From the IMG/VR virus record IMGVR_UViG_3300047564_005685: a DNA stretch of 25,778 bases; one strand, written 5' to 3'. The notes below the pieces were generated by a model. The model saw only the letters and a program-made list of their open reading frames with translations. It searched no databases and was not told the origin of the DNA. The position numbers and the translations under genes are program-made. The DNA is from an uncultured virus (IMG/VR IMGVR_UViG_3300047564_005685) (Duplodnaviria > Heunggongvirae > Uroviricota > Caudoviricetes). Shown piece by piece: positions 1-13,146 of this stretch (position 1 is its first letter; every line of letters starts with the position of its first letter).

Positions 1-560
1 AAGATCACCGCCTTGGGCGAGAGAGATTCGCCGTAGTAATCGGTGACGACCAGCCACGAGTCGGTGCGGTCGAGTTTGTCCATGTAGGCACTGCTGCCCT
101 GGCGCGAAATGTCCAGGCCGCCGCCGACGCCGTAGCCGCCGCCGATCGTGGAATCGAGCAGGGCGTGGTTATTGCCGCTGAGCTTGCTAGCCATGTAGAA
201 CGTGCGGCCCCCGTCGAGGGTGCCGACGAGATCGAGGCTGATGCGCTTCTCGCTGGCAGCACAGAAGGAGCGGAAGAAGTCAACGAAACTGGCAGGCTGG
301 ATGACTTGGCGGCGATTGCCGAAAGCGCCGAGGTAGTTACGGTTGTCACTGCGCAGCCAGAGCTGGCAGTCGGGGTAGGTGCGATCGCAGACCTGGGCGG
401 GATGGCGCTCGACCTGGAAGTTGCAGCCGATGGAGCGGAGGATGGCCTCGTTGTCCATCCAGTCATGCACCTCGGCTGCTGTGCCGCGGAAGAGTTTGCG
501 GTCCGCAGCGGTCAGTTTGCTGGTGGATGCGGCGGGGGCGGTGGCTGGTGTGATGGTCAT
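1..560 (-). CDS. DUF932-like phage/plasmid protein (5' part; runs off the window)
   Basis: Not in the ORF track (no stop in window). Read by hand from ATG at 560, which overlaps the upstream stop as ATGA: MTITPATAPAASTSKLTAADRKLFRG...LWLRSDNRNYLGAFGNRRQVIQPASFVDFFRSF...VGTLDGGRTFYMASKL...DRTDSWLVVTDYYG. The R-x-D...LG...Q...F-x-F...G-x-L-x-GG pattern is typical of DUF932. Confidence 0.7.
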   Translation of the reverse strand, partial: MTITPATAPAASTSKLTAADRKLFRGTAAEVHDWMDNEAILRSIGCNFQVERHPAQVCDRTYPDCQLWLRSDNRNYLGAFGNRRQVIQPASFVDFFRSFCAASEKRISLDLVGTLDGGRTFYMASKLSGNNHALLDSTIGGGYGVGGGLDISRQGSSAYMDKLDRTDSWLVVTDYYGESLSPKAVI

Positions 561-1132
561 GGTGTGTTGATGGATTCGGATTTAGCGAGGTAGGCCGTCA
601 TGGCATCGCGGCTGATCTCGAGTGAGTCGAGGATCTCGTCGGAGACCAGGAGGATGGAGCGGAGTTCCGCAAGAGGCATGCGGGCATCAGGGGTGACGGT
701 GCCCCGTTTGAGCAGCTCCTGGATGCGGAGCTGACTGCTGATTGGCGCAAACGTGTCCAGCGTCTGCTCAAGGGACAGAACAGAGGAGCGGACAAAGCCG
801 TGATTGCGATCAGCGACACGGACAAGCACCTCGCGCTCGTCCGCACTGAGGGAGGCAAAACTCCCGTCACCAGCTGCCATCTGGTCGTGTTGGCTCTTCA
901 GCTGCGCCTCGATCTCTGAGAGGAGATGCAGCGCGGTCATCATGAGCTGGACGAGGTTGACGCCATTGGATGATTTGGCGATCAGCGTGCTGACGACGAA
1001 CTGCAGGTCGCAGGGCCCACCAAAGCGATCCCCGAAATTGAGCTCGGGCAGTAGCTTGCTGACGGGTGCGTCGTCCTGCTTGAGCAGGGATCGCAGCAGG
1101 TCGGGTGAAACGGCATCGGGGATGTCACTCAT
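557..1132 (-). CDS. hypothetical protein, 191 aa, mostly helical
   Basis: ATGA overlaps with both neighbours; tiles the minus-strand operon. Confidence 0.75.
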   Translation of the reverse strand: MSDIPDAVSPDLLRSLLKQDDAPVSKLLPELNFGDRFGGPCDLQFVVSTLIAKSSNGVNLVQLMMTALHLLSEIEAQLKSQHDQMAAGDGSFASLSADEREVLVRVADRNHGFVRSSVLSLEQTLDTFAPISSQLRIQELLKRGTVTPDARMPLAELRSILLVSDEILDSLEISRDAMTAYLAKSESINTP

Positions 1133-1728
1133 GGGAATTGGGGAAGAAGGTCCAGGGCGCGGCGGACCTGGTTGACGGCGATCTCAAGCGAGTTGCGGTC
1201 ACCGTCGATGGCATCAGCGAAGACCTGGCGAATCGGGGAGTCCGGTTGCTCGCTGTTGGCCAGGAAGAGGTCAATGAAATTTGCCTTGAGTCCTGAGGCT
1301 CCACCAGTGCCGCGCCTGGCGGTCAGTATGCCAGCTGTGTCGGGCAGCCGGTAGGCCGCTTCACACAATGCGCCCATCAGAGAACGGACCGACCACTGGG
1401 TGGAAACGGAGCCGTCTCCCTTGATGGAGCCCTGGCATGGGAGCGCCAGGACGAAAGTGCAGTTGGGAACTGGGCTGAGCAAGCGCAGCTCGAGGTATTC
1501 GCGACCGGCGCGCTCGCTGATCTGGCAATCGAGCAGGGCATGAAAAGCCAGGCCGGTGGCTTCCTCGATGACACGACGAGGCGTGCCGTACGACTCGCCG
1601 TACGCATAGAGGCGACCCTGCTGGTCGATGCCGAACCAGAAGGTCTCCTGCCTGGGGGCGGGCACGAGCGCGGCTTCGAGTGGATCGAAGGGCGCGTCGA
1701 GTGTTGCAAGTGGCGGTGTGTGATCCAT
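1129..1728 (-). CDS. hypothetical protein, ~199 aa (MDHTPPLATL...)
   Basis: Start moved from 1845 to ATG 1728, immediately downstream of a GTGCAC repeat copy; stop overlaps the next ATG. Confidence 0.75.
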   Translation of the reverse strand: MDHTPPLATLDAPFDPLEAALVPAPRQETFWFGIDQQGRLYAYGESYGTPRRVIEEATGLAFHALLDCQISERAGREYLELRLLSPVPNCTFVLALPCQGSIKGDGSVSTQWSVRSLMGALCEAAYRLPDTAGILTARRGTGGASGLKANFIDLFLANSEQPDSPIRQVFADAIDGDRNSLEIAVNQVRRALDLLPQFP

Positions 1729-1799
1729 AAACGAAGCAGAGAGCAAAAGTGCACTGCTGGCAATGCACACAAAAAAGCCCCGGCAGTTCTGCCGAGGCT
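1729..1799 (-). repeat. intergenic repeat copy 1 (terminator hairpin + GTGCAC core)
   Basis: + strand: AAACGAAGCA-N10-GTGCAC (1749-1754), then AAAAAAGCCCCGGCAG-TT-CTGCCGAGGCT (1771-1799), which is a hairpin plus U tract on the - strand. Confidence 0.8.
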
Positions 1800-1831
1800 G
1801 GGTAGGATGAAATGCAGTGCGAAAGAACTGC

Positions 1832-2335
1832 ATGTACGCGGTCATGCCGGCTGGCCAGGGATTGATGACAGGTGAGCCTGCGCCGTCACAGCAGCCGGGT
1901 GGGTTGGTCCGCGAGCTGATTGAACTGGCGGGCTTCCTGAAGGAACTGGAGACGCAGGCGCATCTGGTGCATCTGAATTACGAGGGCGATAATTTCTTCT
2001 CGGTCCACGAATTCCTGAAGAGCCAGTACGAGGCGCACCTCGCCGAGTTCGACGAGGTGGCGGAATACGTGCGGGCGCTGGACAACTTCATGCCGATGTG
2101 CAGCTGCGGTCTCAAAGAGTCAGTGCGTGACTTTGAGAACTGCGCGAGCTATGACGGCATGCAGATGCTGATGACGTACCTGATGAATCTCGATGGGTTG
2201 GTCGAGAAGGCCACTGCCATTGAAGCGATGGCCGGCGAGGCGCGAGCCATCGACGTGCAGAATTACATGGCTGAGCTAGTTGCTGCAGCCAACAAAGCAG
2301 CGTGGTTCCTCAAGGCAACTCTGCGGGGGTGCTAG
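1832..2335 (+). CDS. dps: Dps/ferritin-like DNA starvation protection protein
   Basis: Ferroxidase-centre pattern HLVHLNYEGDNFFSVHEFLKSQY...FDEVAEYVR and C-terminal KAAWFLKA. Start uncertain (1832, 1844 or 1865). Confidence 0.88.
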   Translation: MYAVMPAGQGLMTGEPAPSQQPGGLVRELIELAGFLKELETQAHLVHLNYEGDNFFSVHEFLKSQYEAHLAEFDEVAEYVRALDNFMPMCSCGLKESVRDFENCASYDGMQMLMTYLMNLDGLVEKATAIEAMAGEARAIDVQNYMAELVAAANKAAWFLKATLRGC

Positions 2336-2585
2336 ATGCGGCTTTGATATCAGCCGTGTACCTGAGGGCCGCGTATTCCGTGTACTCAGGCCTGAACCTT
2401 CTTAGACCACCAAGTGAATGAATCCTTTTAACAAAGGCATATCCACCCGGATACTTGCCCATCTCCTCAATGGTGGGAAGCACGATCGGCATTCGCTCAT
2501 GCTTGACAAGAAAGTTGTAGATTTCAGGAAAGATACTGCCTGATCCCTCCTTGCTGATCGCTTGGCCGCAATGCGAGCATCTCAT
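2310..2585 (-). CDS. hypothetical protein, 91 aa, N-terminal CxxC
   Basis: MRCSHCGQ start; ATGA overlap with the upstream gene; visibly more AT-rich than its flanks; 26-nt tail-to-tail overlap with dps. Confidence 0.6.
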   Translation of the reverse strand: MRCSHCGQAISKEGSGSIFPEIYNFLVKHERMPIVLPTIEEMGKYPGGYAFVKRIHSLGGLRRFRPEYTEYAALRYTADIKAASSTPAELP

Positions 2586-2887
2586 GGCTGATTAGCGATA
2601 GCGAGTTCATCGCCGATCCTGGAGGACCAGGTCTGCGCGTAAGCGTGGAGCCTCTGAGCCAGGGATTCACCACGTGGCCAATTGGTGCTGGCGAGCTGCC
2701 GCACAGGAAAGCTGTGCCCATCGGCCACGAGCTGGGCTTCGACGACGATCTTCAGCCGACCAGACTTGGTCAACTGCAGCTCATCGCCATGGGCGCCTTC
2801 AAACAGGAAGGCGGCAATACGGCCCTGCAGGTCGTCGGGAATGACTGTGGCAGGGAGCGATGTGGAGCTGTCGGGTTGCTTGGGCAT
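2582..2887 (-). CDS. hypothetical protein, ~101 aa (MPKQPDSSTS...)
   Basis: Internal ATG at 2887 of ORF 2582..3082 avoids overlap with the upstream gene and follows a pyrimidine-rich leader. Confidence 0.65.
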   Translation of the reverse strand: MPKQPDSSTSLPATVIPDDLQGRIAAFLFEGAHGDELQLTKSGRLKIVVEAQLVADGHSFPVRQLASTNWPRGESLAQRLHAYAQTWSSRIGDELAIANQP

Positions 2888-2909
2888 GGCAGGAATAGGT
2901 AGATGCTGA

Positions 2910-3143
2910 TTACACGGTCTGGACGCCAACGAAGGGTCCGACGAGAACGTTGTAGTGACGGCGATACCACTGGCCGTAGATCGGATCCTCCGGCAGGGGG
3001 AACCCCTGATCGAGCCATTGCTGCTCAGGGGTACTGTCATGCGATAGCCAGCCGGCTGAGGTGTGATACCAGCCGGCGGCACGTCGGATGCGGGTGAGGT
3101 AGAGATCGCCTTCGGGCGAATCAGGATTGGCTTGACGCTTCAC
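2910..3143 (-). CDS. hypothetical protein, 77 aa, Trp/Tyr-rich
   Basis: Fills the gap between neighbours with a short overlap; GTG start. Confidence 0.5.
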   Translation of the reverse strand: MKRQANPDSPEGDLYLTRIRRAAGWYHTSAGWLSHDSTPEQQWLDQGFPLPEDPIYGQWYRRHYNVLVGPFVGVQTV

Positions 3144-3696
3144 GAATCATCGTCTTGAGTTCATTGCCGAAGGTGCTTTCGAGCAGCTCACGGATGAGTT
3201 CACGTTGGCGCTCGGCAGTGCGCGTTTGATCGCGAACAAGGGCGCCGACGGCTTCCCCGGCTGCGTTGCGAGCAAAGTCCCGAAGTTCATTGCGGAGATC
3301 GTTGCGAATACGGGCAATCTCGCAGCGGATGGCCTCTGAGACGATGTGATCCTTAACGGCCGCCATAAGCTCGTACCTGAGGCGGCCGATCAGAGCCCTG
3401 GTGAAAACAACGTCGGAGTCAGAGGACGAGTCGTTGGCACTGTCGGGATTGTTCTCCATCCATTGGAGGCCAGTAAGAAGGCTCCTCTTGAGGGAGTCGC
3501 CAAGGTCGAAGTAATCGATGCGACGCGACAGGCGCTCATAGATACGCGCCCAGTCGTCATCGCTGATGGAGAACTGCTCGAGCTGCTGCTTCGCCATGGA
3601 CAGCACCTCATCGTAGGCGGTGACGAGGGAGTCGAGCTTGAAGATAAGGTCGTCGACTTTGACGGTGTTGTCGGTGACGGTGACGGTAGCGGTCAT
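3121..3696 (-). CDS. helical/coiled-coil hypothetical protein, ~191 aa, directly downstream of E1
   Basis: ATG at 3696 just after the E1 stop (alternative TTG 3705 overlapping it); amphipathic helical composition. Confidence 0.75.
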   Translation of the reverse strand: MTATVTVTDNTVKVDDLIFKLDSLVTAYDEVLSMAKQQLEQFSISDDDWARIYERLSRRIDYFDLGDSLKRSLLTGLQWMENNPDSANDSSSDSDVVFTRALIGRLRYELMAAVKDHIVSEAIRCEIARIRNDLRNELRDFARNAAGEAVGALVRDQTRTAERQRELIRELLESTFGNELKTMIREASSQS

Positions 3697-3701
3697 GGGA
3701 A

Positions 3702-4412
3702 TCAAGAAAGGGTGAGCTTGAAGGAACGGCCGTTAGCGAAGGCCGAGTTGGTGACGGAATCCAGGCGTCCGTCCAGCAGGTTCTGGATCACGAGCAGAGC
3801 CATGACAGCGCTGAGTGCGTTGGCGCTGATGAGCTGCGGAGCCGATGGAGCAGCGAGAGCGCAGGAGCCGTGCGCGGGAATGGCGTCAGACGGGGTAGCG
3901 ATATTCGGAAAGAGCAGAGCGGGTGAGATGCCAACCGGTTGGCCAGCGATGACGCCATGCCAGTGAGTGGAGGTAGAGATGCGGGATTGGCCGTCGGAGT
4001 TGTCGGCATTGCCGGTGGTGACGTGCAGCCAGTTGCTGTCAGCCCGCTTCTCAAGGACCTCAATGACGGCAGCACGGGTGGCGTCGTTGTCAACAGTGGT
4101 GACGACGAGGGGGCAGGTGGCGTGCTGCGTTAAGCGGCGAATCGCGGGGCGGTCCAGGAAGTCAGCAAGACTGGTGACCTGGGTCAGACCGATGTCACGG
4201 CAGTATTCAGCCAGGACGTCGGCCTTGTTGCGGCCGATCTGCCCGGCGCCGCAGAGTTGCCGTTCTTGATTGTGCGCCTCGAAGCTGTCCCCATCGGCAA
4301 TGAGGACAGAGGAGGATGCGTTGGGGTGGTAGGCAAGTAGGCGGGCGAGCGAGGGAATCAACTGGCCGCCGGAGCCGCCAGCGCCGATGACGAGGGTGCT
4401 GTCGATGTACAT
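3702..4412 (-). CDS. E1-like ThiF-family adenylyltransferase (PRTRC ThiF-like), 236 aa
   Basis: From ATG 4412: IGAGGSGG nucleotide-binding loop, DGDSFEAHNQERQ, GRNKA, VDNDATR, TGN, LFP...GSCA (putative catalytic Cys), PQLISANA. No CxxC zinc pairs. Confidence 0.92.
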   Translation of the reverse strand: MYIDSTLVIGAGGSGGQLIPSLARLLAYHPNASSSVLIADGDSFEAHNQERQLCGAGQIGRNKADVLAEYCRDIGLTQVTSLADFLDRPAIRRLTQHATCPLVVTTVDNDATRAAVIEVLEKRADSNWLHVTTGNADNSDGQSRISTSTHWHGVIAGQPVGISPALLFPNIATPSDAIPAHGSCALAAPSAPQLISANALSAVMALLVIQNLLDGRLDSVTNSAFANGRSFKLTLS

Positions 4413-5431
4413 GCCGTGGTGGTGGAGGTAGAGAGTTGGCCGAGGAGGAGTGCTTGGGAGCCGTCTACGTAGCCGGTGGGGTCGAGGGTGAAGAACCAAT
4501 AGTTGCCATCAGTGTCGGGATCGGTAGCGAAACCCTTGACACTGTTGGCGTCGTGGTGCCTGAGTCCGGCCACGATGTGTCCGTCATTGGCCGGCACGCC
4601 AGAAGCGCGCAGAAGTAGATAGGCGGTGCGATGGTGCTGAGCGGAAACCAGCAATGCGGCGTCGTAGCCAGGGCCGATGGCGATGCCAGCTGGGGCCGTG
4701 ATCGGCGGATCCTTGCGGACCATGGTGCGGTACTGGCTGAAGCTCTCAGGTTGCAAGAGGTCGGCGTTGGCCCTGGCATCGCAGTAGGTGGCGACGACAG
4801 CGGGCAGGGATTCCGGTGTGCTGTTCTCTTCGCCCCAGCAGACCCTGTGGTCATCGAATGTATTGATCGACTGATAGATGCGAGTCAGTCTGGGATTGAG
4901 GAGATTAGAGGGAAAGCAAGCCTGCATCCAGGCGTATGAGTAATGCGCGCGACCAGTGAATGGATTGAGGTCGACGCTGTAGGCCATGGGCGGCATAGGG
5001 CCGTCATATTCGGAGTAGTAGCTCGAGTCCGGTCCGTAGCGGCCAGCGGGGCAGGGGAAGGGAACGCAGTCAAATCCTTCTCCGCGCCCGTATGGGCAGC
5101 AGGATTCGTAGCGCACCAAGACAGCTTGGTTGCTGTCATCGTCGTGGATGCCGTCGAGATTGATGGACGACTCCTCGTCGTATGTGTCGAAGTTGTATTT
5201 ACAGCCATTGCAGTTTTCCTCGATCCAGCGCTCCTCGGCATCCTCGGAATCGAGATCGGCGAACTCGCAAAGGCCCCAGCGGTCGGGCATCCAGGCGGTG
5301 AGGCGGATGCAGTGGCGAGCCACGGCGCCAATCACCTCGACGTGCCGGCTACCACTGGCCAGCAGGTAGTGCGACGGGAGCGGGTGAATCAGGACCGGAG
5401 GTGGTGTCTGCGGCGAGATCAGTGAGGTCAT
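4358..5431 (-). CDS. E2-like conjugating enzyme (Prok-E2/PRTRC protein B-like) with Cys-rich N-terminal region
   Basis: INTFDDHRVCWG resembles the N-x5-6-(V/I)C-x-G active-site motif of prokaryotic E2s (Cys codon 4838-4840); lies between JAB and E1; start probably ATG 5431. Confidence 0.72.
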   Translation of the reverse strand: MTSLISPQTPPPVLIHPLPSHYLLASGSRHVEVIGAVARHCIRLTAWMPDRWGLCEFADLDSEDAEERWIEENCNGCKYNFDTYDEESSINLDGIHDDDSNQAVLVRYESCCPYGRGEGFDCVPFPCPAGRYGPDSSYYSEYDGPMPPMAYSVDLNPFTGRAHYSYAWMQACFPSNLLNPRLTRIYQSINTFDDHRVCWGEENSTPESLPAVVATYCDARANADLLQPESFSQYRTMVRKDPPITAPAGIAIGPGYDAALLVSAQHHRTAYLLLRASGVPANDGHIVAGLRHHDANSVKGFATDPDTDGNYWFFTLDPTGYVDGSQALLLGQLSTSTTTACTSTAPSSSALAAPAAS

Positions 5432-6419
5432 CGGAGTACCAGATGGGGTCTTCTGAGTCAAATGTGAAATTGACAGCGTCCATGACTTTCGAATGGGCGC
5501 GCATGAAGTCGATGCCGTGCTTGTAGCAGATGGCGCGGATCTCCTCTAATGCTTCAGAGAAGTAAAGCAAAGACTCATTGAGGAGCTCATCGGGGGAGAC
5601 GCCAAAGTCGTCGAGGTGATCGAAGCAATCCAGCGAGTGAGAACGCGTCGAGGAGCCTGGTTTCAGGCTGCTGGTGGTAGAGCCGTAGACAGCGGCCTCT
5701 TCCCGGCTGAGATGACCAGGCAGCCAGGCATCTCCGTAATGGGTGCCGTAGGACCAGCGAGTCCGTTCGGGCTCGATGATGGTCAGGACGGAGGGATGGA
5801 ATGTGGTGTCAGCGGGGGTGAGGTCAATGACATCGGCGGCATCGTCGAGGTAGAAGCGCCGATGGTTGGCGGTGACGGATGCGGTAGGGACGTAGGTGTT
5901 CTTGAGGATCGAGACGTGGGAAATGACGATGTGCAGCCCAGGGCAGCCCAGTTCGCTCGCGTCGTCGATGCTGCTGAACTTGGCCAGTGGCATGGAGTTA
6001 TGGGAGTGGGAGCTGCCAGCAGGAACCCAGCCCTGTGGCGGGTAGGTCTCGATCAGTTCGCCGGTTTCGATGTCGATGGAGGAATCGAAGGTGTCGATGC
6101 GAACGCTGGCACCGCTGACCTCCTGGCGAGGCACAAGGATGCGCCACGTGGAGCGGTCGTCTTCCTTGCGCAGCAGTCTGCATGACACCTCGAGATCGCC
6201 CTGCTTGAGGTGGGCGAAATGAAAACACAGCTTGATCCAGCGTGACCAGAGGTCGGCAGGGATCTTGCTGATATTGGAATTGAGCTCGAAGCGCTCGAGG
6301 GCGCCGTCTTCCAGATCGGCGTGGGCGTCAGGATCCGGGATGGGGCTTAGAAAGGAGCCCCATGCGTTGGTCCGGACCTGGAAGCACCCGTTACGTGGTG
6401 TACGGATGAATTCGGTCAT
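5349..6419 (-). CDS. JAB/JAMM metallopeptidase (Prok-JAB, PRTRC protein A-like), 356 aa
   Basis: DLEVS (catalytic E), VPRQEVSGASV, and GSSHSHNSMPLAKFSSIDDASE (HxH...S-x2-D JAMM motif); ATG 6419 after a pyrimidine-rich leader. Confidence 0.9.
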   Translation of the reverse strand: MTEFIRTPRNGCFQVRTNAWGSFLSPIPDPDAHADLEDGALERFELNSNISKIPADLWSRWIKLCFHFAHLKQGDLEVSCRLLRKEDDRSTWRILVPRQEVSGASVRIDTFDSSIDIETGELIETYPPQGWVPAGSSHSHNSMPLAKFSSIDDASELGCPGLHIVISHVSILKNTYVPTASVTANHRRFYLDDAADVIDLTPADTTFHPSVLTIIEPERTRWSYGTHYGDAWLPGHLSREEAAVYGSTTSSLKPGSSTRSHSLDCFDHLDDFGVSPDELLNESLLYFSEALEEIRAICYKHGIDFMRAHSKVMDAVNFTFDSEDPIWYSDDLTDLAADTTSGPDSPAPVALPAGQW

Positions 6420-6428
6420 GGGTGATGT

Positions 6429-6459
6429 GAAAGAGAAAGGGCCCAGCGCTGCTGAGCCC
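6429..6459 (-). terminator. intrinsic terminator/attenuator between Ubl and JAB
   Basis: - strand RNA GGGCUCAGC-AGC-GCUGGGCCC-UUUCUCUUUC; the stem is fully paired only on the - strand (U.G wobble). Confidence 0.7.
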
Positions 6460-6471
6460 AGGGAGAGAAGG

Positions 6472-6762
6472 TCAGCCGAGACCTTTTGTCTCGGAGGTGA
6501 TGGCGCCTCGGTACACGGTTCCGAGCTCGATGACGGTGTCGCCACCGACGATTTGCCCAGCAGCCACGAAGCGACTGATGCGATCGGTGTCGCCGAGATC
6601 GTCGGCGTAGAGGCTGAAGAGTTCAGCGACGCTCTTGCCCTCGGCCTCGGCCGGAGAGATGGTGATCTGCTCCTCGTTGAGCTGGAGGATCACCGGTTTG
6701 CGCTCGGTGGTGGCAGCGGTAGCGGTGTTGGTGTTGTTGGTGCCGAAGTTGAAGAAGCCCAT
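6472..6762 (-). CDS. ubiquitin-like (beta-grasp) protein, 96 aa
   Basis: Strand-strand-helix-strand pattern (VILQLN/QITIS/GKSVAELFSLYADDLG/RFVAAGQIVGGDTVIELGTVYR); C-terminus SETKGLG; first gene of the JAB-E2-E1 run. Confidence 0.8.
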   Translation of the reverse strand: MGFFNFGTNNTNTATAATTERKPVILQLNEEQITISPAEAEGKSVAELFSLYADDLGDTDRISRFVAAGQIVGGDTVIELGTVYRGAITSETKGLG

Positions 6763-6850
6763 GGATAAGTATGAAAGAAGAGATGGAAAGGAGGTGAGCG
6801 CAGGAGTTCCCGGGCGGTGCGCGCACCGGGAGAAGTATTTGGGTCATGGG

Positions 6851-7075
6851 TTAACTGGTGGGAAAGCCGGACGAGCCCTGGAGTAGAGCTCGTCTGATGG
6901 ATGCGGTGATGTTGCGTTCAGCGCGTGAGTTGCGCTTGCGGCCAAACGGAATGGTTGTGTGGCCGCCGTTTGGGTGGGTGGCGTGCCAATGCTTGCGCCC
7001 GGGCCTGATCTCGAAACCGAGACTGACGGCGAGCTTGAGCATTGGATCCCGACGTAGCAGGGGATTGGAGGTCAC
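6851..7075 (-). CDS. HicA-like (dsRBD-fold) protein
   Basis: LAVSLGFEIRPGRKHWHATHPNGGHTTIP resembles the HicA GF...G-x-H...HP...(V/I)P pattern; small and basic; GTG 7075 or ATG 7042 start. Confidence 0.55.
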   Translation of the reverse strand: MTSNPLLRRDPMLKLAVSLGFEIRPGRKHWHATHPNGGHTTIPFGRKRNSRAERNITASIRRALLQGSSGFPTS

Positions 7076-7083
7076 AGGAGGAA

Positions 7084-7644
7084 CTAGAAGGACATGGCGC
7101 GTTCCTCGTCATCGGAAAGCTTGACGCCAGTGGCTTTGATCCATGGGATCGCAGCCGTAACGAGAAGTTTCTGGATCTCCATGGCGCGCGGCTGCTCACG
7201 GCAACCGAGGCGTTTGCTGGCATAGGTGTATGCCAAGCAAAGCTGCTCAAGGATGTGCTCCAGCGCAGGATCCAGGGACGGCGGCTCGGGGATCAGCCCC
7301 TGGGAGGCGGCATATTGCCTGAGTGCGGCGGGATCGGCGGTGCCGATGGAAGCCGCAGTGTCAGGATCTGCCCAGCCGGTGTCCCTGTTAGGAGGCTGAG
7401 CAGGATCGTCCTGTGGCGGAGCGTCAAAGTCCACGGTGAGAACCGTGGCCTTGATGTCCTCGTTCCAGTAGAGATCGGTCTCGTCGTCGAAGGCGAAGCC
7501 ACGTCGGACGACACCGATGAGGGAATTAGGGATGACCGCGACGCAATCGCGGCCGGCCTGTGTTTTGGCGTTGTAGTAGCAGTAGTGCCACTTGGGGTGG
7601 CGTATTGACGGCCGGGGTTCAGAGGTGATGATTCTTGGGGCCAT
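7084..7644 (-). CDS. hypothetical protein, 186 aa
   Basis: ATG start, GC3-rich codons, two globular-looking parts separated by a Pro/Ala/Asp linker. Confidence 0.75.
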   Translation of the reverse strand: MAPRIITSEPRPSIRHPKWHYCYYNAKTQAGRDCVAVIPNSLIGVVRRGFAFDDETDLYWNEDIKATVLTVDFDAPPQDDPAQPPNRDTGWADPDTAASIGTADPAALRQYAASQGLIPEPPSLDPALEHILEQLCLAYTYASKRLGCREQPRAMEIQKLLVTAAIPWIKATGVKLSDDEERAMSF

Positions 7645-7859
7645 CGAACGATGTAGTGAAAAGAGCGAAGAGTCTTGACCAGAAAGTCAGCGGTCTGACA
7701 GTCAAGGCAGAGAGCAGTCCCGACACGGCGATAAAGGTTGGGGGGATCACTGAGGTTGTCGAGTGCGTGGTGTGCTCGTCGGGACTGCGGAGTGAGATAA
7801 ACCCGGCCCGACGGTGACTGGCTGAGCCAGAAGTCGAGCCGGGGTGGCTGTAGGTTCAC
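7293..7859 (-). CDS. hypothetical protein; first ~72 codons protein-like, remainder overlaps the next gene out of frame
   Basis: GTGA overlap with the upstream stop; N-terminal part fills the 7645-7859 gap. Confidence 0.45.
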   Translation of the reverse strand: MNLQPPRLDFWLSQSPSGRVYLTPQSRRAHHALDNLSDPPNLYRRVGTALCLDCQTADFLVKTLRSFHYIVRWPQESSPLNPGRQYATPSGTTATTTPKHRPAAIASRSSLIPSSVSSDVASPSTTRPISTGTRTSRPRFSPWTLTLRHRTILLSLLTGTPAGQILTLRLPSAPPIPPHSGNMPPPRG

Positions 7860-8074
7860 GCGGGGTGGAACTTGCCCCCGGGTGAATAGGGAGTCAGGAG
7901 CTCAGGGAAGGCCTCGTAGATGCGACGGGAGTTGTCGCGATCGGCATGGCGCAAAGCCAAAGCGAGGCCCTGAGCGAAGGAGCCGCCGAAGTTGAACATC
8001 AATTCGGCGGTGCGGTTCTTGGTCAGGTAGAAGCTGTCGAAGGAGACAGCGAGAGCGGGGGTGGCAGTGAGCAT
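7856..8074 (-). CDS. conserved phage hypothetical protein, 72 aa
   Basis: FGGSFAQGLALALRHADRDNSRRIYEAFPEL matches a GGSF...AD-x2-N...AFP pattern I recognise from small phage proteins; function unknown. Confidence 0.8.
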   Translation of the reverse strand: MLTATPALAVSFDSFYLTKNRTAELMFNFGGSFAQGLALALRHADRDNSRRIYEAFPELLTPYSPGGKFHPA

Positions 8075-8079
8075 GGCGA

Positions 8080-8775
8080 TTAGTTGATAGACCAGGAGAT
8101 GCGCTCTTCGATGTGAGCGCCAGGAATGGAAGCGCCCGCCTTGATGGCCTCCTTGATGGCGGCCTTGTCGGGCTGGTATGTGGTCTTGGAGATGAGGAAC
8201 TCATCCGGCAGTGCGGATTCGTCCTCGATGACGACGCCAGAGGAGCGGCGGGAACGCAGCTCGTGAGTGGGGAGCGAGAACTTGCCCTGCTCCGGGTATA
8301 GGGTGGTCAGGACTTTCATCATGTAGTCCTGCAGGGACTGGGCGCGTTTGTAGTCAGCGTCGGCCAATTCCTTGAGCCGCTTGGCTTGCTCCTTGCGGAA
8401 ATCAGCCATGGCGATCAGGTGATCGCGATAGCGGCAGATGTTGTCGGCCTTGCTGGTGATGAGTCCAGCGGTGTGCTCCTGGGCGCCGAGGTGCTGTTCG
8501 ATGAGGCGAACAGCAGAGGATTCCTGATCGGGGTCATCCGTTGCCAGGAGTTCGGCCGCCAGGGCGATCTCGGATGCGATGTCCTGCGCCTGGATACCCA
8601 GGGCGTACAGAGACGACGCGCCGTCATTGGACGGGGCGACCGGAAGAGATGGTGACTGCTGGGGCGGGTGGGTAAGAGATGTTGGGGAGGAGTGTGCGGA
8701 GAGAGTCGATGTAGCGCTGCCGTTCCCTGAAGGACGGGAACGTTGCGTACCAGGTGCTGCCACGGAAGGAGTCAT
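8080..8775 (-). CDS. siphovirus Gp157-family protein
   Basis: SLYAL, KADNICRY, KEQAKRLKELA, RRSSGVVIEDESALPDEF, PDKAAIKEAIKAGASIPGAHIE are characteristic of Gp157. Start uncertain (see findings). Confidence 0.88.
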   Translation of the reverse strand: MTPSVAAPGTQRSRPSGNGSATSTLSAHSSPTSLTHPPQQSPSLPVAPSNDGASSLYALGIQAQDIASEIALAAELLATDDPDQESSAVRLIEQHLGAQEHTAGLITSKADNICRYRDHLIAMADFRKEQAKRLKELADADYKRAQSLQDYMMKVLTTLYPEQGKFSLPTHELRSRRSSGVVIEDESALPDEFLISKTTYQPDKAAIKEAIKAGASIPGAHIEERISWSIN

Positions 8776-8801
8776 GGAGATAGAGGGTGAAGCCAGAGCG
8801 G

Positions 8802-9017
8802 TTAACGGTGCGACGAACGAAGAAGCGTCCGTCGTGAGGACTGGAGCCTCTGGTCAAAGGACTCCAGTTGCCGTCGGATGGCGGCAACGGACTCAGGGGT
8901 TTGGGATCCGTCGCGCCGGGAGAGCGCCGCTTCGGCTCGATCAAGGAGATCAGCCGTCGCATCGCGGAGGCGATGGAGTGGCGCAAGCCGGTAGTCGTAG
9001 TTGGAGTCATGGGGCAT
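8802..9017 (-). CDS. hypothetical helical protein, 71 aa (MPHDSNYDY...)
   Basis: ATG 9017, GC3-rich, no overlap with neighbours; competes with an alternative frame 8624..9010. Confidence 0.45.
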   Translation of the reverse strand: MPHDSNYDYRLAPLHRLRDATADLLDRAEAALSRRDGSQTPESVAAIRRQLESFDQRLQSSRRTLLRSSHR

Positions 9018-9098
9018 GGCCGTACGACGTGGCGGGCGCAGCATAGTGCGTATCGCCTAGCAGTGGAAGACGTGGCGGGCAGCAAAGCGGCCGCACGG

Positions 9099-9275
9099 TC
9101 AACAGCAAAGCCAGATCGGACGGCCCATGAAGTCACGGCCGACCTCCTGGCAGCGCATGGGATTGGGGGCGATGTAAGCAACGACCTGATAGCAGGCGTT
9201 CTGGGCGAGGGAGGGTGCCGGCAGGGCCAGAAGGATGGCGGCTACGCCGGCAGCGAAGTGAGATTGACGTTTCAT
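9099..9275 (-). CDS. small secreted Cys-rich peptide, 58 aa
   Basis: MKRQSHFAAGVAAILLALPAPSLA looks like a Sec signal peptide; mature QNACYQ...RCQE...WLCC carries 4 Cys. Confidence 0.7.
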   Translation of the reverse strand: MKRQSHFAAGVAAILLALPAPSLAQNACYQVVAYIAPNPMRCQEVGRDFMGRPIWLCC

Positions 9276-9287
9276 GACAAAGCAGGC

Positions 9288-9324
9288 AGAAGAAAGCCCC
9301 GGCACGCGGGGTGCGCGCCAGGGC
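9288..9324 (-). terminator. intrinsic terminator (degenerate repeat-family member)
   Basis: - strand GCCCUGGCGCGC-ACCCC-GCGUGCCGGGGC-UUUCUUCU, with two G.U pairs valid only on the - strand. Confidence 0.7.
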
Positions 9325-9343
9325 GTGAGCCGGAGCAGGTAGG

Positions 9344-9772
9344 TCAGGCTGCGGCAGCCACGAGATCAGGTGCCTTGCCGTTGCCGCTGGGAGCGGCAGT
9401 CACGGGTTCGGCGGGTGCGATCTTGGCGGTGGCGGACTCGGCATCGGTCAGGCCTTGCTTAACGGCCTTGGTGTACAGAGACTTGGTGTACACGTCGGCC
9501 GCTGAGATCGCGTAGACCCCGGTGGGAGTCTGGACGATCTTGCCGTAGTAGACCGTGCCGGCATCGGGGCAGGTGAAGGTGTCGGCGGGGTTGTCCTTGC
9601 CAGCCATCTCGAGCAGATGTTCGGACTTGAAGCTGGCCGCAACGGCGGTTTCACGGCGAGCCTTGCCGCCATTGCGGTTGGACACCCAGGCGGCCTCCAG
9701 GTGAGTCCAGTTCTTACCGCGATCCTTGCCGGAGTAGAGACGCAGGGAGATGGGGCCGAGATTGAGATCCAT
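9344..9772 (-). CDS. hypothetical protein, 142 aa (MDLNLGPISLRLY...)
   Basis: ATG 9772 directly after repeat copy 2; strong GC3 bias. Confidence 0.8.
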   Translation of the reverse strand: MDLNLGPISLRLYSGKDRGKNWTHLEAAWVSNRNGGKARRETAVAASFKSEHLLEMAGKDNPADTFTCPDAGTVYYGKIVQTPTGVYAISAADVYTKSLYTKAVKQGLTDAESATAKIAPAEPVTAAPSGNGKAPDLVAAAA

Positions 9773-9820
9773 GGTGAAAGAGAAAACAACGAAGCAGAAA
9801 GCCCAAGTGCACAGTTGCAA
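9773..9820 (-). repeat. intergenic repeat copy 2 (core only, no terminator)
   Basis: GGTGAAAGAG...AACGAAGCA-N10-GTGCAC(9807-9812)AGTTGCAA. Confidence 0.8.
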
Positions 9821-9884
9821 AGGGCCAACAACAAAACACCACTAGAATGAAGGAACTGAATACGCCTAAAGGCACCAGTCCGTC

Positions 9885-10355
9885 ATGCAGTGGCTTGGGA
9901 ATGTTGATGACCGAGTGCGTGGCTTCTGGCAGCAGCGCGCTGCCGAGACCATGGCTCGTGGACAGAAGAGCTATGCCGATGAGATGGTTGGCAGGGCGAC
10001 TGGCCAGGGCGCGGATCTCGATGGGGTGGCGAAGGCCCTGGCAGGTCGGACCGGTCGGGATCTGAGCGATTACCAGGCGGGCGGGCAATTTGATATGACC
10101 GGCATGGGAGATGCCCAGCTGCGTCAACTGTTTGAAGACACCTACGCCCAGAAGCCTGGGCTGCGGGTGCGAGCAGAGAGCATCCTGGGCAATACCGGCG
10201 CGAAGGCTCGGGTTGGCCAGGCCGGTCTGTATGCAGCGATGGGCGGTGGCCTGACAATGGGCCTGACAGCTGCAGGTCAGGGGCTGTTTGCCCTGACGCA
10301 ATACCTGGCGCAGGGCCAGGATGCAGCCGTCAAGCGAGACCAGGAGCTGGTCTGA
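9885..10355 (+). CDS. hypothetical Gly/Ala/Gln-rich protein, 156 aa, C-terminal hydrophobic Gly-rich helix
   Basis: ATG start, TAGAAT upstream at 9843, composition similar to right-arm proteins. Confidence 0.75.
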   Translation: MQWLGNVDDRVRGFWQQRAAETMARGQKSYADEMVGRATGQGADLDGVAKALAGRTGRDLSDYQAGGQFDMTGMGDAQLRQLFEDTYAQKPGLRVRAESILGNTGAKARVGQAGLYAAMGGGLTMGLTAAGQGLFALTQYLAQGQDAAVKRDQELV

Positions 10356-10359
10356 TGCC

Positions 10360-10542
10360 GTGCAGACCCCGCCGCGCTGGGAGTGTGGGTTATGGGAGCA
10401 GGTATTGATGAGTTTGGAAGAAGCCGGCAAGACAGGGACGTCGTATTACGTGATGGCCGAGGAGGCCGTGTTCCTGTGCCGTCTGTCGGAATGGCGCCTG
10501 GGGATTCAGCGCATATGCGAGCTGGAGGCTGACTATGGATGA
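10360..10542 (+). CDS. hypothetical protein, ~60 aa
   Basis: GTG 10360 within ORF 10321..10542; tiles between neighbours. Confidence 0.5.
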   Translation: MQTPPRWECGLWEQVLMSLEEAGKTGTSYYVMAEEAVFLCRLSEWRLGIQRICELEADYG

Positions 10543-10735
10543 GCCAATCCTGCTGGCGGGTGAGCGCATGGGACTGGACATCCGAGAAGGCCTGAGCGAT
10601 CCGAGGATCAAGACCAGGCTGCTGAATAGAGCCTGGTCTCAGAGCCTGATGTCTAATCCCATGGCGCCGGAGAACAGTGAGCCGAACTATACGCTGCTGG
10701 GATCGATGCAGCCAGAGGTGACGTTCGGCGCATAG
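10535..10735 (+). CDS. hypothetical protein, 66 aa
   Basis: ATG start overlapping the previous gene by 8 nt; ends before a terminator hairpin. Confidence 0.6.
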   Translation: MDEPILLAGERMGLDIREGLSDPRIKTRLLNRAWSQSLMSNPMAPENSEPNYTLLGSMQPEVTFGA

Positions 10736-10787
10736 TGCACAGAGGTGACATGAAAAAGCCCCGACGCGCATAGTGGCGGCCGGGGCT
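10734..10787 (-). terminator. terminator hairpin with adjacent GTGCAC (partial repeat copy) at the convergence point
   Basis: AGTGCACAG (10734-10742), then AAAAAGCCCCG...CGGGGCT (10753-10787). Confidence 0.7.
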
Positions 10788-10792
10788 GGATG

Positions 10793-10954
10793 TCAGTGCT
10801 GCATTGGGGTCTCCGTGAGGGGTGGTTCAGGCCCGAATTCGAGGGCCAGGCAGTAGTCGTGGTAGTCCGCCCAGGACTCGAGCAGCCCGGGCGGAGCATT
10901 GCGGTCGTCGAGGACCACCAACGCGGTGTCGACACGGGATAATGATGCCGTCAT
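10793..10954 (-). CDS. hypothetical protein, 53 aa
   Basis: Below the ORF-track cutoff; read by hand as MTASLSRVDTALVVLDDRNAPPGLLESWADYHDYCLALEFGPEPPLTETPMQH; ATGA overlap with the upstream gene; ends just before the terminator. Confidence 0.65.
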   Translation of the reverse strand: MTASLSRVDTALVVLDDRNAPPGLLESWADYHDYCLALEFGPEPPLTETPMQH

Positions 10955-11412
10955 ACGGGCATAGCAACAAAGCCCTCGACCATTGCGCGCTTGGACCGCT
11001 TGCGCCTGGTCCGAGTGATGGCGCGAAGTTCTTCAGTCGTGTTGGACATGAGGTCTTCGGCCAGCTGGGCGAGGGGATGCTGAGGAATGGGCGCGGCCTC
11101 TGTGGTGGTGGCGCCTGGAGTTGACGCCACCGGTTGGTTATCAAGGATGAGTTGCTCGATCTGGTCGTCGAGCTGTTCAAGGAGATCTGCGGCGATGCGC
11201 AGAAGGATGATGACGCCCTTGAGCATTTGGTGGCTGCGTTTGCCAAGGGCGATGAGGACCCCGCCGATGAAAGCGATCACGGCGAGGGTGATAGCCATGG
11301 CCTGCCGCGCTGTGCGCTGAACGTCGGCCATGGTGATGGCGCTGGCCTTGCGCTGCAGAATGGCCAGGCCCTGCAGGAGGGGGTCTGCAGGTGGAAATGA
11401 GGAGAAAGACAT
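10951..11412 (-). CDS. membrane protein, 153 aa, possible C-terminal helix-extension-helix (Rho-N/SAP-like) motif
   Basis: TM segment AMAITLAVIAFIGGVLIALG; C-terminal LMSNTTEELRAITRTRRKRSKRAMV; ATG 11412 follows repeat copy 3. Confidence 0.75.
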   Translation of the reverse strand: MSFSSFPPADPLLQGLAILQRKASAITMADVQRTARQAMAITLAVIAFIGGVLIALGKRSHQMLKGVIILLRIAADLLEQLDDQIEQLILDNQPVASTPGATTTEAAPIPQHPLAQLAEDLMSNTTEELRAITRTRRKRSKRAMVEGFVAMPV

Positions 11413-11418
11413 TGTTCT

Positions 11419-11493
11419 AAACGAAGCAAAGGACTGAAGTGCACAGCTGAAGAGGTGCAAGAGAAAAGCCCCACCCGCTTGCGCAGATGGGGC
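11419..11493 (-). repeat. intergenic repeat copy 3 (core + terminator)
   Basis: AAACGAAGCA-N10-GTGCAC(11439-11444)AGCTGAAGAGGTGCAAGAGAAAAGCCCCA...TGGGGC. Confidence 0.85.
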
Positions 11494-11515
11494 AGGAATC
11501 AGAGGCCGCGCCGGG

Positions 11516-12112
11516 TCAGAACGGGATGTCGCCCTCATCGAGGGGCTCGGGCTCACGGTGCGGGATGGGCGGGAGGCTCAGGTCCTCGGCTGGCGCCTGG
11601 GGCTGACCTCCCTTGCTGAGCAGGTCGAAGGCAAAGACGCGCTTATCGGGCGCGTACGCGAAGGAGGTTTCGCGGTAGACCCGCCCGGTGTTGGGGTTGG
11701 TCAGCTCCTTGGTCTGGACGCTCCGGGGATTGCCGGAGTATTCCCAGAACAGGCGGACACAGGCCCAGTCGCAGGTGTCCATGAGCTGCCGGATCTGGGT
11801 GCCGGCCATGTTGTTGGGTTCGTCCCAAACGGTGAAGTACACCGTTTCCACCGGCACCCGGCGGCGCTGAGGTTCCTCGGCAGTGCCGAAGTTGACTTGC
11901 GCGCCGATGCGGACGCGGACGCGAAAGCCGCCGTCAACGACGGAGTTGTCGCGCCGCTGGACCGGGTAGACCCCGGTGATGATGCCGACTGTTGTGGAGT
12001 CGGCGTTGGCCTTGCGGCGCTGGAGAGGGGACGCCTCGGCAGCGGGTGCCGAGAGAATGGCTTCGAGCTCGGCGATGCGGGCTTCGAGCTGGGCCTTGGT
12101 GGTCGTGGTCAT
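11516..12112 (-). CDS. SSB-like protein, 198 aa, with acidic DIPF tail
   Basis: Beta-rich core (VYFTVWD), Pro-rich linker, C-terminus LDEGDIPF resembling the bacterial SSB tail; N-terminal short coil KAQLEARIAELEA. Confidence 0.65.
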   Translation of the reverse strand: MTTTTKAQLEARIAELEAILSAPAAEASPLQRRKANADSTTVGIITGVYPVQRRDNSVVDGGFRVRVRIGAQVNFGTAEEPQRRRVPVETVYFTVWDEPNNMAGTQIRQLMDTCDWACVRLFWEYSGNPRSVQTKELTNPNTGRVYRETSFAYAPDKRVFAFDLLSKGGQPQAPAEDLSLPPIPHREPEPLDEGDIPF

Positions 12113-12229
12113 GGTGCTGCCCGGTGGTGTGCCGGGGTGAAAGAGCACGAAGCAACGCAGCAGTGAGCACAAGTGCACAGCTGCAGAGTTGCAATAGAAA
12201 AACCCCACCCAGCCGGAGCCGAGTGGGGT
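12113..12229 (-). repeat. intergenic repeat copy 4 (long form + terminator)
   Basis: GGTGCT...CCGGGGTGAAAGAGCACGAAGCAACGCAGCAGTGAGCACAAGTGCAC(12173-12178)AGCTGCAGAGTTGCAATAGAAAAACCCCAC...GTGGGGT. Confidence 0.88.
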
Positions 12230-12235
12230 AGGGAC

Positions 12236-12442
12236 TCAGTAGCCGCGACGACCGAGTTCGATATTGATGGCGTCGAAGACGGCCTCAGCCATGTCGGCAT
12301 CGGGGCCGTCTTGGCGGACGAGGTCGGCGGCTTGGCACATGAGTCGCTGGAGATGGGGCTCCTCGAATTGGCTCATGTCGGCCGGACGGCCGAAAGTGTC
12401 GACGGCCTCAAGCCGCAGCTGCAAGGCAGGACAGATAGACAT
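12236..12442 (-). CDS. hypothetical acidic protein, 68 aa (MSICPALQL...)
   Basis: ATG 12442; sits exactly between repeat copies 5 and 4. Confidence 0.7.
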   Translation of the reverse strand: MSICPALQLRLEAVDTFGRPADMSQFEEPHLQRLMCQAADLVRQDGPDADMAEAVFDAINIELGRRGY

Positions 12443-12445
12443 GAT

Positions 12446-12498
12446 CTGCTGATGAGGTGCAGCAGAAAACCCCTGCCCAGCAGGAGCCGAGCAGGGGT
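12446..12498 (-). repeat. intergenic repeat copy 5 (truncated core + terminator)
   Basis: CTGCTGATGAGGTGCAGCAGAAAACCCCTGC...GCAGGGGT; lacks GTGCAC; terminator closely related to that of copy 4. Confidence 0.75.
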
Positions 12499-12503
12499 GG
12501 GTA

Positions 12504-12719
12504 TCAGTAGCGGCCGTGAATGGCGTAGGTGGTCTTGAACTCGCCGCACCATGCGGACATGGCGGCATCCTTGTGGGCGGGCCAGTCGCGCAGCGCGCAC
12601 TGTCGAAGTGCGGCAGCGCTGAGTTGGGCCGTGGCGATCTGAGTAAGGGCGATGAGGCCAAAGCTCACGCCAATCCCGAAGCCGATAGCAGTGAACGGGT
12701 TGATGAAGAAAGAGCGCAT
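12504..12719 (-). CDS. small membrane-anchored/exported protein, 71 aa
   Basis: N-terminal hydrophobic segment, then QCALRDWPAHKDAAMSAWC; the C-x3-DWP-x-H...WC pattern is one I associate with cyanophage proteins (from recollection, not a search). Confidence 0.75.
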   Translation of the reverse strand: MRSFFINPFTAIGFGIGVSFGLIALTQIATAQLSAAALRQCALRDWPAHKDAAMSAWCGEFKTTYAIHGRY

Positions 12720-12792
12720 CGAAGCAGGCGGCGCGAGTGCACCGCTGAAGAGTTGCAATAGAAAAGCCCCCACCCGCTGTGCGAGTGAGGGC
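12720..12792 (-). repeat. intergenic repeat copy 6 (core + terminator)
   Basis: CGAAGCA-N10-GTGCAC(12737-12742)CGCTGAAGAGTTGCAATAGAAAAGCCCCCAC...GTGAGGGC. Confidence 0.85.
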
Positions 12793-12798
12793 AAGTGC

Positions 12799-13065: not shown

Positions 13066-13146
13066 GGTGCTACCGGGCTGAGCCCGGGGTGAAAGAGCAC
13101 AAAGCAACGGAGCAGAGAGCACAAGTGCACAGCTGCTGAGTTGCAC
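13066..13146 (-). repeat. intergenic repeat copy 7 (long form, no terminator)
   Basis: GGTGCT...CCGGGGTGAAAGAGCACAAAGCAACGGAGCAGAGAGCACAAGTGCAC(13125-13130)AGCTGCTGAGTTGCAC; very similar to copy 4. Confidence 0.88.

Follow-up and report, generated by a model that had tools for sequence, protein, structure and literature searches.

A candidate ubiquitin-like conjugation cassette carried by cyanophage-like viruses and distantly related to the 6d/PRTRC operons

The DNA examined here is a 25,778-nucleotide stretch (the window) of an uncultured Caudoviricetes virus, IMG/VR record IMGVR_UViG_3300047564_005685, which carries at 3121–6762 a cassette of five genes with the predicted parts of a ubiquitin-like conjugation pathway. 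The five lie on the minus strand in the same orientation and abut or overlap one another (Table 1), and the cassette is real, conserved and phage-borne. The original prediction, made from the letters alone, had proposed a complete four-gene operon for a ubiquitin-like protein (Ubl), a JAB/JAMM metallopeptidase, an E2-like protein and a ThiF-type E1. All four co-oriented open reading frames (ORFs) are present and the four genes are real, but the set is larger than was claimed. A further gene begins on the stop codon of the E1 gene and keeps this position in relatives, with homologues directly after the E1 gene in loci L002, L003, L004, L006, L007, L019 and L021, and we therefore count the unit as five genes.

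Table 1. Features of the cassette region, in window coordinates.
Feature	Position	Strand	Description
Ubl precursor	6472–6762	-	96 aa, C-terminal TKGLG
JAB/JAMM metallopeptidase	5349–6419	-	356 aa, start ATG at 6419
E2-like protein	4358–5431	-	357 aa
ThiF-type E1	3702–4412	-	236 aa, start at the ATG of MYIDST
Fifth gene	3121–3705	-	194 aa
G+C-rich hairpin and T-rich run	6439–6459	-	9 pairs; between Ubl stop and JAB start codons

Orthologues of the JAB protein align from the start codon given in Table 1, so the longer ORF at 5349–6545 is unsupported, and the E1 frame is open up to 4499. The G+C content at third codon positions is 0.72–0.80 in each of the four frames encoding the Ubl, JAB, E2 and E1. 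The window itself is ~60% G+C and is arranged as two divergent gene blocks, one on the minus strand from 1 to ~13,160 and one on the plus strand from 13,845 onward. The E2 frame extends 55–67 nt into the E1 gene in seven of seven loci, including marine ones of 44% G+C, and the overlap is only 4 nt in two of the three related IMG/VR records described below. An apparently invariant tail of the E2 protein (Cys341 and a Ser-rich stretch) arises because the E1 start codon and Gly-rich loop are read there in another frame. A programmed frameshift fusing E2 to E1 in the manner of Cap2 was considered and rejected, as no slippery heptamer is shared among the loci. In the fifth protein, conservation is confined to the first ~45 residues, where L24, L27, Y31, L35, A38, Q41 and L42 are invariant (alignment A8); it has no family match in Pfam, NCBIfam or PADLOC and one weak match in PHROGs (E = 0.005). 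Judging from its sequence, the intergenic hairpin may serve attenuation or help to stabilise the mRNA; a scan of the region with the hairpin consensus found 3 sites against 3.3 expected in shuffled sequence, and the hairpin alone is not significant.

The window lies in a 40,123-base IMG/VR record that CheckV rates as 46% complete. As had been proposed, it belongs to a phage genome encoding both a large terminase (TerL; phrog_38, 2e-72) and a Gp157/Gam-like protein, together with a Dps-like protein. The TerL shares 54.5% identity with its counterpart in Synechococcus phage S-EIVl, a phage that has homologues of 5 of 36 window ORFs and of none of the cassette genes. The remainder of the 40-kb record contains DUF932, GP88 and single-stranded DNA-binding protein families and a weak PD-(D/E)XK match; tRNA and Rfam scans of the window found nothing. 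The cassette itself sits among non-structural phage genes. The window DNA is present in freshwater or aquatic metagenomes from 10 studies, with no RNA run among the sequencing runs listed for it, and contigs of three other studies join the cassette to both flanks: one of 24,119 bases covers 2537–12525 and continues to 19048, one of 8,746 bases covers 138–8880, and one of 5,168 bases covers 3368–8532. Joins seen independently in this way exclude a chimeric assembly, such as one of phage DNA with a plasmid or an integrative and conjugative element (ICE).

The proteins were scanned against Pfam, NCBIfam, PHROGs and PADLOC, with the Pfam scan repeated at a relaxed E of 0.1. The E1 is the sole cassette protein that the profile libraries recognise directly; direct annotation fails for the Ubl, JAB and E2, and their earlier assignments therefore needed independent tests. 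To place these three, we relied on AlphaFold models and searches by fold together with alignments of the families and transitive links between profiles, and the hidden Markov models built in this analysis recover family members missed by the standard libraries. PADLOC matched no defence-system model except the generic E1 part of Cap2. The catalytic motifs that the original prediction had read as intact are present and, because they are invariant in the family alignments, represent more than chance.

The assignment of the 3702–4412 product to the ThiF/E1 family is borne out by the Pfam ThiF model (PF00899), which it matches at 37.4 bits against a gathering threshold (GA) of 28.1 (E 2e-9). Its best NCBIfam match is PRTRC_ThiF (TIGR03736), with a score of 51 bits where the cut-off is 144.75 and with orthologues at 33–35 bits; it also matches ThiF and MoeB models, and its PADLOC matches to the E1 part of Cap2-type E1–E2 models are weak (E 3e-7). 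The protein consists of a single adenylation domain with the motifs GAGGSGG and N48-x-x-R51-Q52. We found 58 orthologues, and across the 32 that were aligned (A7) residues G10, G12, G13, G15, R24, D42, N48, R51, Q52, D108, R113 and C184 are invariant. They include the predicted nucleotide-binding residues, Arg finger, Mg-Asp and Cys of the enzyme. Complex prediction with two E1 copies and the E2 gave no verdict (score 0.00).

For the E2-like protein, 28 close homologues, all unnamed, were combined with five more distant ones in a 33-sequence alignment (A4). N190, C198, W199 and G200 are invariant in all 33, as are N222, D224, C74, C77, C112 and C127, and CWG occurs in 144 of 151 family proteins of at least 250 aa. 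The spacing from Asn190 to Cys198 is 8 residues, and the HPN...C motif of UBC enzymes has the same Asn-to-Cys spacing. An AlphaFold2 model (predicted local distance difference test (pLDDT) score 82.2; predicted template modelling score 0.72) contains strands at residues 12–48 and 149–169, a long loop with N190 and C198, and helices at 209–218 and 228–240, giving a UBC-like core of residues ~12–48 and 149–245. The order of these elements, a beta-meander and C-terminal helices with the Cys on the loop between them, fits the UBC fold. An insert at 55–147, which is partly poorly modelled, houses four invariant Cys residues, and a separate extra domain occupies the C-terminus (~250–335). A comparison of the model with 48,161 representative chains ranked E2 or ubiquitin E2 variant (UEV) proteins in 27 of the first 29 places, with Z scores of 3.7–5.0 over 98–132 aligned residues. 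Furthermore, re-scoring of the Foldseek candidates placed E2/UEV proteins in all 42 top rows (Z 3.5–5.4), with unrelated rows at 3.3 or below.

A family link points in the same direction as the model, in agreement with the claim that the 4358–5431 protein is UBC-like. An exhaustive HMMER search with the E2 family profile reached 187 proteins. Nine of 56 distant family proteins scanned match Prok-E2_D (PF14460), three of them above the GA of 25 (27.1, 31.9 and 34.6 bits), and two of nine close members scanned match it at 15–16 bits in the relaxed scan; the window E2 itself has no Prok-E2_D match, so that the link is transitive. Comparison of the E2 family with the Prok-E2_D-positive proteins by hhalign gave 99% probability (E 3e-18, 156 columns), and the aligned stretch covers both N-x-[FY]-x-D-x-x-V-C-W-G and N-x-D-L. 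PRTRC_B (TIGR03737) was matched by five of 20 distant E2 family proteins at 15.5–24.4 bits, with a cut-off of 131.45, and the window E2 and Ubl match neither PRTRC_B nor PRTRC_C.

The JAB protein is laid out as a putative N-terminal alpha+beta domain, a JAMM core and a variable C-terminal part. In all six aligned sequences (A3) the predicted JAMM residues E77, H138-S-H140, S149 and D152 are invariant, as are R6 and W20 in the N-terminal domain ahead of the core. Prok-JAB (PF14464) is the only Pfam match in five of six members, at 18.4–22.6 bits against a GA of 25 in the relaxed scan, and it falls on the HxH...S..D stretch of the orthologues; the window copy does not match it even at the relaxed threshold. 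The PRTRC_A model (TIGR03735; cut-off 101.8) matches the orthologues from L005 (23.3 bits) and L002 (20 bits) and has no match to the window JAB at E ≤ 0.01. The invariant motif and these sub-threshold matches agree with the JAMM peptidase of the original prediction. Neighbours in the ESM Atlas are Uroviricota clusters of 378–404 aa, some carrying Prok-JAB, and the Atlas's own low-confidence model of the protein resembles a Prok-JAB cluster (template modelling (TM) score 0.45/0.77) and one PRTRC protein A cluster (TM 0.40).

A profile search with the Ubl returned 184 clusters, none of them named. An SExK motif is present in all 120 listed family members and is followed by Gly in 119; the chain ends exactly at this Gly in 59 of the 120, and beyond it there is one residue in 16, two in 34 (LG in the window protein), three in one and 12–47 in nine. 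In all, 61 members have tails, of 1–47 residues, which would have to be trimmed and so imply proteolytic maturation. Two of the long tails (found in P0286, P0287 and seven others) are Cys-Gly-rich. At the other end, 118 of the 120 carry an M[GAS][LFI]F[NS]F motif (MGFFNF in the window, 6745–6762), followed by a low-complexity linker that is disordered in the model; this motif could be a docking or sorting signal.

The window Ubl has a beta-grasp domain at residues ~24–94, ending at the invariant Gly94, with the two-residue tail beyond it. Its AlphaFold2 model (36 sequences, pLDDT 74.5) shows a beta-beta-alpha-beta-beta-beta order over residues 24–88. A Foldseek search of the model against the PDB is dominated by SUMO, ubiquitin, NEDD8, TGS and MoaD (best E 4.3e-3, probability 1.00), with nothing at E ≤ 0.001, and a Foldseek-independent search gave Z scores of up to 8.4, with the RAF RBD, Fubi, ISG15, MoaD and the Bil Ubl (8tyz_B) listed. 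By model and fold searches, the protein is predicted to have the beta-grasp fold, as had been expected of it.

Some of these neighbours raise the question of whether the cassette tags proteins at all. The Ubl could instead be a sulfur carrier of the ThiS/MoaD type, serving thio-modification of a cofactor, tRNA or DNA, with the E2-like protein and the JAB as accessory or scaffold. A ThiS cluster is the closest named structural neighbour of the Atlas's own Ubl model (TM 0.72/0.86), MoaD chains score Z 6.8–7.0 against our model, the E1 matches ThiF and MoeB, and the relative S-EIVl carries a sulfate adenylyltransferase. However, the original statement that the window has no ParB or sulfur-metabolism gene holds for all 38 of its ORFs in the Pfam scan, and no rhodanese, cysteine desulfurase, ThiG/ThiH, MoaE or any further family of a sulfur pathway was found in these or in the 17 further record ORFs scanned. 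Moreover, an invariant Cys lies in the UBC-like core of the E2, the JAMM site of the JAB is intact, the Ubl family ends in Lys-Gly rather than Gly-Gly, and many of its members have tails that imply maturation by proteolysis. Taken with these points, we regard a sulfur-carrier role as quite improbable.

The cassette is not confined to the window. The original prediction had suggested searching other records for the same synteny, and it is found in nine marine metagenome loci of ~44% G+C, where the gene order is the same and identities are 24–56%; six of these are complete and three are cut by contig ends. In addition, three more IMG/VR records related to the window phage, of 56, 85 and 90 kb, carry the full cassette, and those of 85 and 90 kb are 100% complete by CheckV, one of them with terminal repeats. 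In marine loci L003, L005 and L007 the cassette has psbA 0.5–3 kb upstream, surrounded by genes of homing-endonuclease type; endonuclease VII, HNH/NUMOD4 or T5orf172 genes are among the neighbours, and the L005 psbA is 82% identical in DNA sequence to that of cyanomyovirus S-RIM2. Within the L005 cassette, an HNH-like ORF separates the Ubl gene from the JAB gene. In L019 and L020, the cassette is upstream of a homologue of the window 9344–9820 gene and of the Gp157 block, whereas in the window it is downstream of a HicA-like gene; this difference in backbone position indicates that the cassette moved as a unit. Compared with the window copies, the proteins of the three IMG/VR relatives are 45–58% (JAB), 46–49% (E1) and 48–63% (Ubl) identical, and their E2 proteins 23–27%, the E2 diverging about twice as fast as its partners.

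Homologues of the E2 and E1 also occur on a 3.67-Mb Synechococcus chromosome contig. Scans of viral and genome contig collections with the E2 alignment returned nothing, and neither did a scan of the genome contigs with the Synechococcus homologue as query. Among 50,697 GenBank phage records there are remote relatives only: megablast of the window and tblastn of its JAB gave no match, and tblastn of the L005 JAB gave four weak matches, to Salmonella phage Arash and three Vibrio phages. Remote JAB–ThiF pairs are present in Bacillus phages of ~230 kb and in Arash, a JAB homologue in the three Vibrio phages, and a gut contig has a JAB, a ThiF and a Prok-E2_D protein. A possible E2 lies upstream of the JAB–ThiF pairs of Arash (L014, 1340–4539) and of Bacillus phage vB_BceM_WH1 (L010, 2707–5801), with WH1 gp214 matching the E2 profile at E 0.003; the remote genes of these two phages are annotated as hypothetical, 'structural' or ThiF. 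The Arash E1 and a neighbouring protein have been detected by mass spectrometry, as described in PMC10585845. We did not use the 'structural protein' labels of these two genes as evidence of packaging, as the particle proteome behind the labels also lists ribonucleotide reductase and RNA polymerase (PMC10585845).

The PRTRC matches bring in another possibility, namely that the module helps to maintain or partition a mobile element, the assumed role of the PRTRC (ParB-related, ThiF-related) systems of plasmids, ICEs and some temperate phages. Among NCBIfam models, PRTRC_ThiF matches the E1 best and PRTRC_A the JAB orthologues, and the PRTRC genes of a Burkholderia prophage are described as a partition cassette (PMC13366799). 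Against it, ParB_N was absent from all four cassette-bearing viral records, including the whole 40-kb record and two that are 100% complete, with 10 of 14 control genomes positive. Every PRTRC score is also far below its cut-off, and the partition role of PRTRC is itself a putative one (PMC13366799). A partition function for the cassette is in our judgement very improbable.

We read the cassette as a very diverged, ParB-less relative of the '6d'/PRTRC-type operon and as a movable five-gene module of a cyanophage-like lineage that would tag proteins, and put the probability of this reading at roughly 0.65. All steps of the proposed chemistry are drawn from conserved residues and folds. The JAB would trim the 96-aa Ubl precursor to expose the invariant Gly94, which the ThiF-type E1 would adenylate and then link as a thioester to Cys184. 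The Ubl would next be handed to Cys198 of the UBC-like E2 and from there to lysines of target proteins, with the choice of target made by the E2 C-terminal domain, the Cys-rich insert or the fifth protein. The JAB may also be able to remove the tag.

Several observations weigh against this reading. The window Ubl, JAB and E2 have no direct match in Pfam, NCBIfam, PHROGs or PADLOC, and their family profiles gave only chance-level rows when compared with PDB sequences. The E2 model found nothing at E ≤ 0.001 in Foldseek searches of the PDB or BFVD, its other fold-search scores are modest (Z at most 5.4), and alignment A4 contains no invariant His anywhere, before or downstream of C198. That C198 is the equivalent of the catalytic Cys is inferred from the motif spacing and the Prok-E2_D alignment. 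The JAB fold comparison, in turn, depends on an Atlas model with a pLDDT of 0.63. A 2026 paper states of PRTRC that the function 'has not been studied' (PMC13366799).

As possible purposes, the original prediction had offered modification of host proteins, shielding of phage proteins and countering of host Ubl-based defences. As to the use of such a pathway, our guess is that tagging of host or rival proteins during infection, to the benefit of the phage, is its most likely role, because the E2 is diverging at about twice the rate of its partners and non-structural genes surround the cassette. A fast-evolving E2 and a mobile cassette fit offensive or defensive use, in conflict between phage and host or between phages. 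The more specific proposal that cyanophages, both freshwater S-EIVl-like and marine psbA-carrying ones, run their own E1–E2–Ubl–deconjugase cascade to tag host proteins, with the E2 as target selector, is a tentative one, and we would put the odds against it.

The same chemistry might instead be defensive, a phage-carried immunity against superinfecting phages or a protection of the lysogen in which proteins of rival phages are tagged. The bacterial E1/E2/JAB systems so far characterised, type II CBASS as well as Bil, act against phages, as described in PMC11601596, and Bil tags a phage tail protein. Within a single phage backbone, the cassette behaves like a module able to move, its rapidly evolving E2 fits an arms race, and the E2 and E1 homologues on the Synechococcus chromosome contig are compatible with a prophage. 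Among the four cassette-bearing viral records, all of which have TerL and none psbA, the complete G003 encodes a tyrosine integrase (56.8 bits). However, searches of G001, G002 and the complete G004 turned up no integrase. The nearest isolate, S-EIVl, which we take to be of lytic type, lacks the cassette; the marine copies stand beside psbA, among auxiliary genes typical of lytic cyanophages; and PADLOC matched only the generic E1 part of Cap2. We consider the defensive role unlikely.

If the offensive proposal is true, this would be the first bacterial virus shown to use ubiquitin-like conjugation offensively, and the cassette would give a first function to the whole uncharacterised 6d/PRTRC class, which has had none assigned since its description in 2006. 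Ubiquitin-like machines have so far been known mainly as bacterial antiphage weapons (type II CBASS, Bil) rather than phage equipment, and a ParB-free module that moves in complete phage genomes and stands beside marine psbA suggests that the virus side uses this chemistry too. As an experimental system the cassette is small: its E1 has 236 aa and its Ubl 96 aa, and an extra domain is built into its E2. Because Lys93 precedes Gly94, trypsin would leave a single-Gly remnant on conjugates; together with the small system, the predicted single-Gly remnant on target lysines would make the function of the class testable.

Some features of the surroundings are recorded here in their own right. Directly upstream of the Ubl gene, 6851–7075 (minus strand, 74 aa) has a weak match to a HicA-type 'toxin' (phrog_353, E 1.7e-4), and its product is 64–66% identical in L019 and L020, where it lies away from the cassette. 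The Dps/ferritin-like DNA-binding protein (1817–2335) is encoded on the plus strand within the minus-strand block and is shared with S-EIVl (46%) and L019–L021 (45–62%). Contigs of two other runs skip 269 bases at 2333–2603 and so lose a 91-aa ORF (2310–2585), which is a strain-level difference in presence or absence. The plus-strand ORF at 13845–16859 (1004 aa) has no family match and is the only part of 1–20000 left uncovered by contigs of three of four other runs, while in one 24-kb contig an unrelated sequence of similar length takes its place; it looks hypervariable and is possibly a host-range determinant. The S-EIVl terminase (L013, ~54176–56617), a single coding sequence of 847 aa, matches the window TerL in two pieces ~1 kb apart, which suggests an intein or similar insert without counterpart in the window gene. 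The G003 terminase frame is also long, at 895 aa.

Among known systems, the closest in composition is the uncharacterised five-component operon that Iyer, Burroughs and Aravind (2006) list in their Table 1 as row 6d. They describe 6d as comprising a small Ubl with Gly at its C-terminus; a JAB in whose N-terminal domain an Arg and a Trp are conserved; an E1-like protein; an E2-like protein that keeps one Cys, lacks the classical His and has an absolutely conserved downstream His; and an alpha-helical protein that diverges rapidly around conserved charged residues (PMC1779556). In the cassette, likewise, the Ubl is small, stands alone and has a conserved C-terminal Gly; the JAB has an invariant Arg and Trp (R6 and W20) near its N-terminus; the E2-like protein also stands alone and has a conserved Cys but no classical His; and the E1 is a small ThiF-type protein without a rhodanese domain. 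The fifth, fast-diverging protein of the cassette is a candidate counterpart of the one in 6d. The cassette differs in that its E2 lacks an invariant downstream His. We take row 6d to be the core of the NCBIfam PRTRC system (proteins C, A, B and ThiF), and the PRTRC_ThiF, PRTRC_A and PRTRC_B profile matches agree with this. The original prediction had equated the four genes with PRTRC C, A, B and ThiF. Relatedness stands through the profile links, and these three models are the best or only NCBIfam matches of the cassette family, but all scores are far below the curated cut-offs, by which no cassette protein belongs to any PRTRC family (TIGR03734–03738). The cassette also differs from 6d/PRTRC in the absence of ParB, in the four-Cys insert and extra C-terminal domain of its E2, and in being hosted by a cyanophage lineage instead of a plasmid or ICE.

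Phage-borne PRTRC cassettes are already in print: the Burkholderia gladioli temperate phage AB2 / BgVeeders33 carries a canonical one with ParB, which its authors interpret as serving partition (PMC13366799). Compared by its published description, it resembles the present case in having a ThiF/Ubl/JAB/E2-type cassette on a phage genome, and differs in encoding ParB and proteins A, B, C, E and F recognised by NCBI models and in belonging to a proteobacterial temperate phage (PMC13366799). Our literature searches, with supplements outside their reach, found no published description of the cyanophage cassette.

The bacterial defence systems are more distant. Bil (BilA–D) likewise has separate Ubl, E2, JAB and E1 genes, and its Ubl (8tyz_B) scores Z 6.6 against our Ubl model; transfer from E1 to E2 to lysine has been demonstrated for it (PMC11601596). 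It is, however, a host defence system with no sequence-level link to the cassette, and its defining features are not seen here, as the cassette E1 has one adenylation domain and the Ubl one beta-grasp domain. Type II CBASS similarly combines E1 and E2 activities with a JAB partner (Cap2/Cap3). In contrast to the separate, overlapping E2 and E1 genes of the cassette, its Cap2 is a fused E2–E1 and its substrate is a CD-NTase, for which the window ORFs have no match in Pfam or PADLOC. Bub (6E/DUF6527) is another diverged bacterial Ubl/E2/E1 set with a peptidase. It is described as forming oxyester intermediates at Ser, which takes the place of the catalytic Cys in its E2, and at Tyr, and as having a protease of the DUF6527 family (PMC11601596), whereas the putative catalytic Cys residues of the cassette E1 and E2 are invariant and DUF6527 (PF20137) has no match in the window ORFs. 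Finally, the tail-assembly proteins I (Ubl) and K (JAB and NlpC/P60) of phages Lambda and T1 already pair a phage Ubl with a C-terminal Gly and an adjoining JAB (PMC1779556). These belong to a tail module that has neither E1 nor E2, while the cassette lies in the non-structural arm of its genome and brings an E1 and an E2 of its own.

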